Virus record (IMG/VR): IMGVR_UViG_2529293040_000022
Strand: one strand, 5' to 3'
From: a virus
Lineage: Duplodnaviria; Heunggongvirae; Uroviricota; Caudoviricetes
DNA length: 22,206 bases
Numbering within the stretch: the first letter of the stretch is position 1; each line of letters starts with the position of its first letter. The position numbers are program-made. This document shows positions 9,001-12,000 of this stretch, one piece after another.

Positions 9001-12000
9001 TTAAAAGGGCTGAAATGATAAAAGCCCCGAAAGGGGCTTCTATCAAAATCATTTACGCATTATTCCGCATGCTTAAAAGAATACATGACAGATTCGGACA
9101 AAATCAAGTGCAATGTCGCAAAAACCCTAAGCTTAGTTCACATCATCACCAAAACTTGTCACATTCTGAAAAGCAATATCGGCCTTACGCTCTTCCTGGT
9201 GGCAAATGTCAACCAGAGAATCAAGAAACGGCTTCCAATTACGCGTCCATGTCCTGACATGTAGCTCGGGTATCCGCTTCAGTACAACTTTATATACTGT
9301 GGTAGACGGTACCGTGGAAAATCCATTTCCGCTGCAACGTTCGCAGATTTTAAACACTGGCACACCACGCTCGCTTGTGGCTTTGCGGTCCAGTACCTCT
9401 CCCTTTCCACCACAACGACACCTGGCACTTATCACTCCCTTCCCTTTACATACATCGCAAACGACTGGTACAACTTCCGTTACCTCTGTCCATTTCTCCC
9501 AGTCTGACGGTCGAACAGCACGGGAGCGACTGGCCCAATATGGTGCTTTACCCCATGGGTATGAAACCTTACGAATGACCTGCTTACGGGGTGTTAGTCC
9601 GGTACCACTGCAACTATGGCATGTTACGCTGGTGTCCGCCGATCGGGAATACTCAGCAAAAGCAAACTGCGCCAGTACCAGCATACACCAGCCAAATTCA
9701 CCACCAGCTGCTTTACGCACATTCTTCGGTGCAATTTCCATCGCGTGACGCGCCAGCGCTTGGACTGCCATCTGCTCATCAGTCTTGCTGATACCGGCCT
9801 TCCCGAAGAAGGCCGCCAAGCCAAACCGTTCACGATTGCTGGTGGTACCAATAGCCGCCATAACATCGGTGCCTGTAAGACGTTCCGGAGAGGTTCCTTT
9901 CACATCGTCGCCGATATACATTCCCTGAGGACTGAAGTATTTTAGCGATGCCTCAAGCTTCATTATTCACACTCCCCAACCAGATTAAGAATAACCGCCG
10001 CGCCATTGTCTTTCATATATTCGCCCTTTCCGCTTGCCAAAAACCAACGACACACCTCCACTGCTTCAGCCCGTGTCACCGGTTTGATGGTCATCAGCAA
10101 TTTTTCAAGGTAGCGCTCGCGGTCATATACCGATTCGTGATGCTCAGAGTAACCATACTCATCGCCCTGTTCTTTAGACGCAGTGTGGCGAACACTGTAG
10201 AGCCAGTCCCAGTAAACAAACTCACGAACTACGTCTGACAATGTATGAGGCTCTGGCAGTACATCACGATAGCCATCAACATATGCACGACGCTGATCAT
10301 CAATTTCATTCATACGGATGCCATCAATTCTGCCCGCTGTCTTCTCGGCTGCAGTCCAGCCCCAGAGATGATCGTCGATAAATTTCTGGGAAGACTTGAT
10401 CACTCGCTCGGCTTCCACATCTTCGAGTGCTGCTTCATAGCTACCAAACGTAGCCCTGACTGATGTTGCTTTTTTGATATTCTCCCGGGCGATCCTGATT
10501 GCCTGTGCCGGGTTATCCATGCCGATGGTACCGAAAGCAATCTGGAAAGGATCACCACCATTCGCCAGCAGATAACGCGAATAGCGTTCCTGGGCCTCTT
10601 TTGGGGAAATTTTAATTTTCACCAGCGCAGCCTCAGCAGCATCCAGATGTGCGGGTTCGTTCAGACGGATAACCTCCAGCACCCAAAGATAAGCATCAGT
10701 CTGCTTATGCCCGGTGATTCTCCGTTGCTCTGGCAGGGGCTTGATGTTTGCGAGGGCGGAGCTGTACGCTGCCGTCGGGATGGTGAATAGTGCTTTATGT
10801 TCGTTGTTATCAGTACGCATTACGCAACCGCCTTTTTCTTATGGAAAACCAGCTCTCGAACCTGATCACCGTTCATGAGCATATTGTTGAAATCATCGTG
10901 ATCCGGCCAGTACACGCTCACGCGCTGCAGGTCATTCTTTGCCATCAGATTGGCATGAGCACATTCGCAAGCCGCAGCCAGCCCGGTGGCGCTGTTCTCG
11001 TCACGGTCGGCAAAAATAATCAGGTGCAGAACACCAGCTGGTACGCGGAACTTTTTCATAAAGCCGCTGTTAATGGTTGCCCAGGTGTTCACGTTATAAA
11101 TCTGGTGCGCTGACAGCGCTGTTTCGATGCCTTCGGCGATACCCAGAGTGCTAGCAACAGGAAACATGCGGATAGCTACAGAACGAGCGTGATCCAAATA
11201 GTTATCTTCCTGCAGGGATTTGAGGCGCTTTGCACTGCTACCGATATCTGCTTTTTTATCACCATCAAGCAGAGTCTGGTGCAGATAGCACAACTCCCCT
11301 TTATCGTCCGTAGCAAGTGAATAAAGAGACTGGAACACACTCCCGTTGTGTCTCTGCCTGGCATTGAACCGGATCGCCTCAGCAGGAAGACTGAATATTC
11401 CACGAGAATTAAGATACGCTGCGCCGGATGTACCACGCAGTGCCTCCAGTTTTGAAAACTTGCTCAATACCCGTTTGCGTAAGCTGGTGGCGCTGCTGGT
11501 TACCGGGATTTTAACCCGTTGGTAATCATTACCGATCAGGCGGTCTATTTCGGTACAAATCTCGTTAAATGGCTTCGCCTGTGTCAGGGTGACAAGTTTC
11601 ATACCATCGCCACTACCACATACACAGATCCACGTTCCTGCACCGTCGCGGTCATCAATTCGGAACTTGCCACGTGCACCGCATACCGGGCATTCACCCT
11701 TGAAGTGATTTTTTCCTGTTATCGGCGGCAAGCCGAAGTGCTCTAATATTTCAGGCCAGCGGCCTTTCGCTGCAGCTGCTGTTTTCATCTTACTGACTCA
11801 AACTGTTTATATTTTTCTGGAGTTGTTGCTTTGCTTGCATGATGCGCCAAGCCTCAGTGCCTATTGGCATCTCGCTTCGCTCACCTCGTTCCTGAGACAG
11901 AGGAATCGTTGCCTGCAATTTTTCTATAGTTCTCTGCGTCCGCTGACGGCCTTTGGCAAACCGAATCAGCTTGTGTTTGATGTAGTTACTTACTTCTGGG

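Follow-up and report, generated by a model that had tools for sequence, protein, structure and literature searches.

ORF285, an uncharacterised gene between primase and antitermination gene Q of a tailed phage, as an apparently headless member of a proteobacterial protein family

The 22,206-nucleotide stretch of DNA analysed here (the window; IMG/VR record IMGVR_UViG_2529293040_000022, from a virus of the Caudoviricetes) carries on its minus strand, at positions 9963-10820, an open reading frame (ORF) for a protein of 285 amino acids, ORF285, that begins with ATG, ends with TAA and lies between the genes of a primase and of the antitermination protein Q. As judged from comparison with its homologues, ORF285 is a real gene under purifying selection, and it belongs to a broad proteobacterial family in which most members possess an N-terminal DNA-binding domain that is absent from ORF285. 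A possible function, favoured here tentatively, is that of a non-enzymatic modulator acting by protein contacts: ORF285 would be the effector core of the family without its helix-turn-helix (HTH) head, dispensable for the phage, and expressed early together with primase and Q from a slot that is equivalent to the nin region of lambdoid phages. The gene as such is already catalogued (PHROG 6204) but uncharacterised, and what is new here are the missing HTH together with a misleading label, the apparently new fold, the three states of the slot, and the palindromes that relatives carry inside their own genes. The initial annotation had described an unassigned ORF of 285 codons at this position; the ORF listing bears this out and adds the minus strand, which had gone unstated, and an assignment has turned out to be impossible by homology as well.

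A family core without its DNA-binding head

The missing head becomes apparent in the alignment of ORF285 with P0121, its closest HTH-bearing relative, in which residues 3-282 of ORF285 align to residues 44-323 of P0121 at 51% identity. HTH-bearing members consist of a head of about 45 amino acids and a shared helical core of about 260 amino acids, and by this alignment ORF285 starts exactly at the boundary between the two, with the head missing. Also the frame is not extendable upstream, as its start is the first ATG past a stop and overlaps the stop codon of the primase gene. Among 58 sampled representatives of the family, 35 have an N-terminal extension of at least 35 amino acids (typically 40-60); these extensions are basic, with a median isoelectric point (pI) of 10.3. 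The core that the members have in common is acidic; its median pI is 5.2, and that of ORF285 is 5.6. The extensions are matched by the Pfam models Sigma70_r4_2 (nine members, best 1e-7), HTH_23, HTH_28, Sigma70_r4 and HTH_7, and once by Bro-N, and two or three members, P0194 and P0220 among them, have a long ParB-like N-terminus. When the 58 diverse members were scanned as a whole, Pfam models matched their N-terminal HTHs only, and the core stayed uncovered.

The name given to the ORF285 protein by NCBI/PGAP is 'helix-turn-helix domain-containing protein'. Since ORF285 is without the HTH head of its relatives, this label is wrong for the 285-residue enteric form, and it offers no basis for inferring DNA binding by ORF285.

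The core comprises two lobes. The N-terminal lobe (residues ~1-150; window 10371-10820, minus strand) is delimited by the alignment and by the AlphaFold model, with a predicted local distance difference test score (pLDDT) of 86-98, and the C-terminal lobe (residues ~171-285; 9966-10310, minus strand) by the alignment, by matches of residues 171-285 and 210-285 to phrog_2887 and phrog_19083, and by Klebsiella phages such as KPP5665-2, in which a protein of 158 amino acids that consists of the C-lobe only (gp43) occupies the slot between primase and Q. Going by such matches, the C-lobe can stand as an independent unit.

Predicted structure and search for known families

The AlphaFold2 model of ORF285, calculated with the 58-sequence alignment, is all-helical with 15 helices (mean pLDDT 89.8, predicted template-modelling (TM) score, pTM, 0.84), and its two lobes (~1-150 and ~170-285) are linked by a stretch of lower confidence. 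The N-lobe opens with an extended conserved strap, DN..H..LF.IP...LP..ITG....D..LW, which is followed by helices. A Foldseek comparison of the predicted structure, which the initial annotation had proposed as a check, gave no significant match in PDB (best E 0.7) or BFVD (best E 1.0), with TM values of ~0.1-0.2 for the top-ranked structures, and the model of the HTH-bearing homologue P0164 (pLDDT 94.6, pTM 0.87) had no significant match in PDB either (best E 0.28). The modelled fold is apparently new, without a solved or viral-predicted counterpart. Conserved positions of the family are mainly Pro, Gly, Trp, Phe, Leu and Tyr, plus D42, E138, R211 and E252; according to the alignment they include P30, T36, G37, D42, W46, Y80, F125, G126 and E138 in the N-lobe, and P191, W204, L207, R211, P247, E252 and L280 in the C-lobe. 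There is no conserved set of His, Cys, Ser or Lys in the family alignment, and because no residue set of a catalytic type is conserved, the protein may be a non-enzymatic scaffold or binding protein.

That ORF285 has no recognisable motif, as had been stated from reading the sequence, holds for systematic scans as well: Pfam gave nothing at E<=0.1, HTH families and DUF1367 included, NCBIfam nothing meaningful, PADLOC just PbeC (15 bits, E 0.0015), which matched 46 residues of the linker modelled with low confidence, and PDB sequences were matched neither by ORF285 (phmmer) nor by the 58-sequence profile. The outcome against which the initial annotation had staked its reading, that NinG, a methyltransferase or some other nin-region protein already known would be matched, did not occur, as NinG/Rap, NinB/Orf, RusA, NinH, NinI and DNA methyltransferases were all without a Pfam, NCBIfam or PDB match in sequence, profile or fold searches. 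Also the recombination or resolvase function that had been suggested for a nin-type slot found no backing, as nothing pointed to a recombinase or resolvase.

Further candidates were rejected. Eru1C/DUF1367 gave no Pfam signal in ORF285 (E<=0.1) or among the 58 family members, and lambdoid initiators or loaders (Phage_rep_O, Phage_lambda_P, DnaC-like) gave no domain match in ORF285; as P0122-type members are present together with complete O/P or O/DnaB sets, it seems that the family does not replace an initiator or loader. A small terminase, TerS, can be dismissed, as ORF285 has no HTH and no TerS fold match and its gene sits in the early operon; the HTH of one homologue matches PF10668 weakly, and in phi467, which is closely related to and syntenic with the window, the terminase genes lie elsewhere. 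For an anti-phage defence protein there was no significant PADLOC model match, and for a one-component regulator of the RRNPP or TetR type the Foldseek values, obtained with the model of the HTH-bearing P0164, were insignificant (E 0.8-2.7, probability <=0.12 and TM ~0.12 for Rap phi3T, AimR and TetR).

Conservation, distribution and selection

ORF285 matches phrog_6204, a family of unknown function, over its whole length; with E 3.1e-183, its residues 1-285 cover positions 1-285 of a profile of 286. A set of 5.8 billion proteins contains 394 homologues, and in a library of 1.84 billion representatives 137 clusters are related to ORF285, down to ~25% identity; the homologues span Enterobacterales, Pseudomonas and Burkholderiales. 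Phage relatives are CUW01237 of the Escherichia phage phi467 (99%), STM0902 of the Salmonella phage Fels-1 (85%) and gp28 of the Cronobacter phage ENT39118 (79%), and a homologue is present also in phage vB_EcoS-611R1. Complete E. coli genomes contain ORF285 in 97 of 5,426 cases, and in the plasmid search the sole ORF285-type copies were those of integrated prophages, adjoining Toprim genes. When a profile of the distant members was run against a large protein set, the names returned were only 'hypothetical protein'. A sevenfold repeat match in the 1324-residue P0191 was rejected as chance similarity amplified by the repeat.

The median dN/dS (Nei-Gojobori, same-length relatives) is 0.125 for ORF285, as compared to 0.073 for the primase and 0.154 for the helicase, and the ORF is intact in all 85 close loci examined, which together speak for a real gene under purifying selection. 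Its GC content of 0.49-0.52 is like that of the neighbouring genes. With clusters that number in the hundreds, the family is widespread in Gamma- and Betaproteobacteria, and it has no Pfam model. Among the carriers of the gene itself are prophages of the Stx2f and Fels-1 types in E. coli, Salmonella, Cronobacter and Enterobacter.

Junctions and neighbours in the window

The single-nucleotide overlaps at both ends that had been reported for ORF285 are present: the coding strand reads TAATG at 10818-10822, where the TAA of the primase gene and the ATG of ORF285 share one base, and again at 9961-9965, where the TAA of ORF285 and the ATG of Q do so (CATTA on the plus strand in both cases). A GGGGAG at 9972-9977 (minus strand), which may serve as a Shine-Dalgarno-like sequence for Q, lies within the final codons of ORF285 (..VGECE*), 8 nt upstream of the Q start codon. 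The overlaps and this GGGGAG suggest a translational coupling of ORF285 and its neighbours. The conserved C-terminus ..NLVGECE is encoded by CTGGTTGGGGAGTGTGAA (window 9966-9980, minus strand), which includes the GGGGAG, and this end is common to ORF285, the 158-residue Klebsiella C-lobe protein and P0155, a relative of 32% identity. As its codons contain the GGGGAG, the conservation of ..NLVGECE may partly reflect a constraint on the translation initiation of Q.

The identification of the neighbours as a replication gene and a late regulator is supported by Pfam and PHROG. Upstream lies the primase (322 amino acids; 10820-11788) with Zn_Ribbon_Prim (3.7e-14), DUF7146 and Toprim_3 (1.8e-14) domains, preceded by a superfamily 2 (SF2) helicase (552 amino acids; 11790-13448; ResIII/Helicase_C) that opens the helicase-primase replication module and ends one base short of the primase start. 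Downstream follows Q (276 amino acids; 9133-9963; PF03589, 2.6e-52), so that four genes, all on the minus strand, stand in a tight row.

Two further ORFs of the window are mentioned as side observations. Between the cro-like genes and the helicase there is an ORF of 122 amino acids (13560-13928, minus strand), which is kept in Fels-1 and phi467 and matches phrog_1347, a family of unknown function, in its C-terminal third only (positions 149-271 of 417). Between Q and the holin, on the opposite strand, an ORF of 287 amino acids (8087-8950, plus strand) lies in a patch (~8100-9300) of 35-40% GC, as compared to ~50% nearby. Its location is the site of stxA/stxB and two tRNA genes in phi467, which elsewhere is 99.5% identical. 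This ORF matches phrog_7003, whose function is likewise unknown, and gave no match in Pfam or PADLOC; it looks like a moron that occupies the stx slot.

Genomic context across the family and the three states of the slot

Conservation of the gene neighbourhood, the other check that had been proposed, is found on the primase side but not throughout. In almost every one of the 85 close loci primase and ORF285 adjoin directly; the few exceptions are loci with a shortened primase or on contigs that are not complete. The Q side is variable: the downstream gene is a PF03589 Q of 65-100% identity, or alternatively an unrelated, Q933-like Q of 115-140 amino acids with a start that overlaps or nearly abuts, and rarely RusA or another small gene instead of Q.

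Distant relatives have no fixed partner. The HTH-less P0122 (52% identity) follows lambda O and DnaB on one contig and lambda P on a second one. The likewise HTH-less P0155 immediately precedes a PF03589 Q, and the prophage that carries it has a long nin-like region. Of the HTH-bearing relatives, P0121 comes after a Zn-ribbon/Toprim_3/DUF927 fusion and a single-stranded DNA-binding protein (SSB) and before a PF03589 Q, and P0126 is preceded by a PrtN-like 'PyocinActivator' gene. Prophages of Pseudomonas and Achromobacter have several of the HTH-less copies between a cI-like repressor and the integrase, beside Bro-N or ORF6N proteins and off the replication genes. Homologues on islands (Pseudomonas, Burkholderiales and metagenomic) are the near-terminal gene after integrase, an AlpA-like gene and a primase-helicase, at times directly before a DUF5681 gene, and the replication genes of these islands are Toprim plus DUF927, a Toprim-DnaB fusion, or DnaB plus a DnaC-like gene. 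What these loci have in common is an early-operon position, mostly at the boundary of replication and late genes, with no fixed partner on either side, as far as gene order tells.

Four of the islands (L002, L091, L095 and L134) measure 7-10 kb and combine an integrase, an AlpA-like HTH gene, a primase-helicase and an HTH-bearing homologue, with or without DUF5681; virion structural genes were not recognised in these four. They are candidates for a type of phage satellite or mobilisable island that has not been described before.

The slot can also be empty. The phage isolates Fostie (E. coli) and YP3 (Yersinia) and the prophages UMNK88 and 1008S19 have the helicase-primase pair followed directly by Q, their pairs are 76-84% identical to that of the window, and the genomes of Fostie and YP3 have no copy of ORF285 elsewhere. 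Taken together with the Klebsiella phages, these loci indicate that the slot between primase and Q exists in three states: full-length, C-lobe only, and empty. The initial view of a nin-equivalent accessory slot agrees well with this, as relatives come after varied replication modules and before two Q families, and viable relatives have the slot empty.

The borders of the gene appear to be sites of recombination. In complete E. coli genomes the primase is found at >=99% identity in 65 and ORF285 in only 4, whereas in more distant phages ORF285 is the better conserved of the two (85-90% vs 75-81% for the primase). Because the order of conservation flips with distance, recombination breakpoints at both borders of ORF285 are indicated rather than a fast evolution; an arms-race type of fast evolution was rejected because of this mosaic recombination and the low dN/dS. 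The contrast in identity between primase and ORF285 puts a boundary of mosaic recombination at their TAATG junction. As a separate observation, L007 and L014 (IMG/VR contigs, ~6495-7998), which are otherwise identical prophage contigs, have apparently lost most of the primase (~91 amino acids align) and have a truncated helicase match, and their ORF285 and Q stay 100% identical.

Palindromes inside the genes of HTH-bearing relatives

A 17-bp palindrome, TGAAAC-N5-GTTTCA, recurs inside the genes of HTH-bearing homologues. Across 50 distant loci, and allowing <=1 mismatch, it was found 59 times in the 61.6 kb made up by the genes +/-150 bp and 14 times in the other 832 kb, which corresponds to 0.96 vs 0.017 per kb and thus to a 56-fold enrichment near the gene. 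Shuffle controls gave 0.03 expected matches for L095, which has 3, and 0.02 for L002, which has 5, and no shuffle equalled the observed number. The loci concerned are L002 (6265-7801), L095 (9873-10782), L091, L127 and about 20 loci of the Pseudomonas putida group (L100-L125). The palindrome is present in about 30 of 41 HTH-bearing loci and in none of the nine HTH-less copies (267-275 amino acids).

Several properties set these palindromes apart from protein-coding constraints. They occupy all three reading frames, and internal copies stand at varying positions of the protein. One copy can include the start codon (A-TGAAAC...GTTTCA, encoding M-K-x-x-V-S), often with a second copy 27 bp downstream of the start site in the Pseudomonas putida group, and in four lineages there is a site at the stop codon (TGA-AAC...). 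The start-proximal palindromes use the codons AAA, GTT and TCA, each of which accounts for 24-30% of its synonymous family in these genes of 55-66% GC. The occurrence in all frames, at varying protein positions and at start and stop codons, together with the minority codons, argues that the palindromes are features of the DNA. One Thiopseudomonas/Pseudomonas group has instead a variant, TTGAATA-N5-TATTCAA, 30-60 bp upstream of the gene.

These sites make it very probable that the HTH-bearing members act as dimers which bind DNA site-specifically, at sites located within their own gene, and that dimerisation at least is supported by the core. Such palindromes, which resemble binding sites and stand within the own coding sequence, are unusual and easy to test. 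The window itself has no such palindrome at <=1 mismatch, and matches with two mismatches occur at chance level and outside ORF285.

Iteron-like arrays are found separately in the islands, with three copies of AGGTACAGATAGGTACA in L095 (8877-8947) and direct and inverted GGGGAAC repeats in L108 (8626-8866). Both arrays come directly after the gene of a primase-helicase or a DUF927 helicase, in small islands that carry an integrase, and are probably the replication origins of these islands. As these arrays look like the real origins, it is more likely that the palindromes serve as operators, or as some other kind of binding array, than that they form an origin. An origin inside ORF285 was considered and rejected, since there is no iteron or repeated palindrome in or around the gene.

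Possible functions of ORF285

The function that is tentatively favoured combines these aspects. Typical members of the family have a basic N-terminal HTH and an acidic, all-helical core of ~260 amino acids and would bind DNA at specific sites. In the phage lineage of ORF285 the HTH would have been lost, so that the protein begins at the core, and because of this loss ORF285 most likely acts off the DNA, as a modulator or adaptor that may oligomerise, contact a partner or do both. The rightward delayed-early transcript would be the source of the protein, whose synthesis the stop/start overlaps would keep in step with that of primase and Q. ORF285 would probably tune early lytic development, i.e. 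the transition from replication to late expression, without being required. The action by protein binding, the timing of expression and the affected process are thereby inferred. If the function is of this kind, the position is of interest, as the Q that lies downstream of ORF285 is the switch for lysis and, in Stx phages, for toxin release, and a modulator directly upstream of Q could affect the output of induction.

Several points weigh against this interpretation. The palindrome evidence comes from relatives that are just 25-30% identical to ORF285, and P0121, the closest HTH-bearing one, is without TGAAAC-N5-GTTTCA. The protein-binding adaptor is partly a diagnosis by exclusion, and the core may hide an enzymatic or DNA-binding activity to which sequence conservation gives no clue. 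The literature on STM0902 consists of one paper that names it merely in passing. A role in replication, finally, would account equally well for the position next to the primase that is constant among close relatives.

Such a role, in which the core would bind the primase, the helicase or a host replisome protein and aid the assembly or loading of the replisome, similar to lambda P-type proteins or replisome organisers, is nevertheless unlikely. The HTH-bearing relatives would in this case tether the activity to DNA, and it is in line with a replication accessory that ORF285 is joined to the primase by a coupled stop/start in nearly all close loci and that relatives follow five unrelated types of replication module (Toprim plus DUF927, Toprim-DnaB, DnaB plus DnaC-like, primase-DUF927 plus SSB, and lambda O plus DnaB or P). 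However, the helicase-primase pairs of Fostie, YP3 and UMNK88 do without ORF285, phages of the P0122 type carry complete O/P or O/DnaB sets in addition, the HTH-less copies between cI and int are distant from replication genes, in islands it is the separate iteron arrays after the helicase that resemble an origin, and primase and ORF285 are separated by a recombination breakpoint.

Of a similarly low probability is a regulator of the late switch, i.e. a family of transcription factors at the early/late boundary, of which ORF285 would modulate Q-dependent late transcription or its timing by protein contacts, for example to RNA polymerase or Q. No fewer than four divergent lineages (the window type, P0121, P0155 and the Klebsiella C-lobe proteins) have the gene directly upstream of Q, two unrelated Q families are found in this downstream position, and elsewhere the gene lies beside a PrtN-like activator or before DUF5681 at the distal end of int-primase-helicase islands. 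The HTH of sigma region-4 type and the operator-like palindromes on the gene's own start are what would be expected of regulators, and the architecture is like that of one-component regulators with an HTH and a helical domain, some of which (Rap) act without an HTH. On the other hand, phages without ORF285 keep Q and are viable, some HTH-less copies are in the leftward cI-int region, and Foldseek finds no significant resemblance to Rap, AimR or TetR proteins (E>=0.8, probability <=0.12). As the Q families are unrelated, the adjacency to Q looks positional and not like a specific partnership.

It is quite unlikely that ORF285 is a protein of genetic conflict, with a function in counter-defence, host take-over or interference between elements, for example as a decoy that would heterodimerise with, and thereby poison, the HTH-bearing homologues that are core genes of small integrase-primase islands, which are candidate satellites. 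The patchy presence among otherwise syntenic phages, the position for early expression, the acidic, non-enzymatic nature and the novel fold are compatible with it, as are the HTH-bearing homologues that are near-terminal in islands of 7-10 kb with int, AlpA-like and primase-helicase genes and no recognisable virion genes. Against it stand the lack of a notable PADLOC match and of any match to solved anti-defence proteins, the strong purifying selection and the conservation across bacterial classes, which are unlike the diversification of an arms race, and the fact that a close HTH-bearing copy was not found on any enteric satellite. With just ~25-30% identity between ORF285 and the island proteins, a heterodimerisation is doubtful.

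A more far-reaching version, which is very unlikely, sees in the helical core a new module of mobile elements for higher-order DNA complexes, and in HTH-less copies like ORF285 decoys against satellites. HTH-bearing members may then coat their own gene by way of the start, internal and stop palindromes, the coated gene may be a centromere-like, packaging-specificity or copy-control device of the islands, and HTH-less copies in helper-type lambdoid phages may co-assemble with the island proteins and disable them; ORF285 would in that case be a weapon of phages versus satellites, placed between primase and Q. Least probable of all is a diverged known nin enzyme (NinG/Rap, NinB/Orf, RusA, a Dam-type methyltransferase or the NinI phosphatase) or a decaying remnant, as only the nin-equivalent position and the series of full, half and absent genes speak for it, whereas Pfam, NCBIfam and PDB sequences gave no signal even with the 58-sequence profile, the confident model resembles no such fold, and the dN/dS of 0.125 and the 85 intact ORFs out of 85 do not fit a remnant.

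Comparison with known systems

The closest known layout of replication genes is that of the Eru1 type of Stx phages, in which eru1A (SF2 helicase), eru1B (Toprim protein) and eru1C (DUF1367) replace lambda O/P (PMC8044961). A helicase, a Toprim protein and a third gene, of unknown role, are common to both, but the third gene is DUF1367 in Eru1, and no DUF1367 signal was seen in ORF285. The helicase/Toprim layout is treated in the Eru papers, the ORF285 gene is not.

With the nin genes of lambda (ninB/orf, ninG/rap, ninH and ninI) ORF285 shares the position between replication genes and Q and the dispensability in relatives, but there is no similarity in sequence or fold to any of them. The combination of an N-terminal HTH with a helical effector domain follows a logic that is analogous to that of RRNPP (AimR/Rap) and TetR regulators. 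Some RRNPP members of the Rap type have no HTH and act by protein contacts only. Since the Foldseek similarity, with best E values of 0.28-1.2 and a TM of ~0.12, is insignificant, no membership is claimed for the ORF285 family.

The hexamer GTTTCA/TGAAAC is also the half-site of parS, and parS sites can occur inside parB genes. The palindromes of the HTH-bearing homologues thus have an identical half-site hexamer, and the few members with a ParB-like N-terminus (P0194, P0220) fit in with this, but the half-sites are in reverse arrangement with a 5-bp spacer, the usual HTH of the family is not scored as ParB-type, and ORF285 is entirely without a DNA-binding part.

Closer are the HTH-bearing homologues themselves, such as P0164 and P0121, which have the core motifs TG..D..LW, RY, FG, PAE, P.TL.D, YW..LY.LR, P....EA and NL in common with ORF285, and which differ by the ~45-residue head similar to sigma region 4 or HTH_23 and, often, by palindromes in their own gene, neither of which ORF285 has. 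Closest are PHROG 6204, STM0902, phi467 CUW01237 and ENT39118 gp28, which are full-length homologues of 79-99% identity in the same position between primase and Q, and thus represent the same family.

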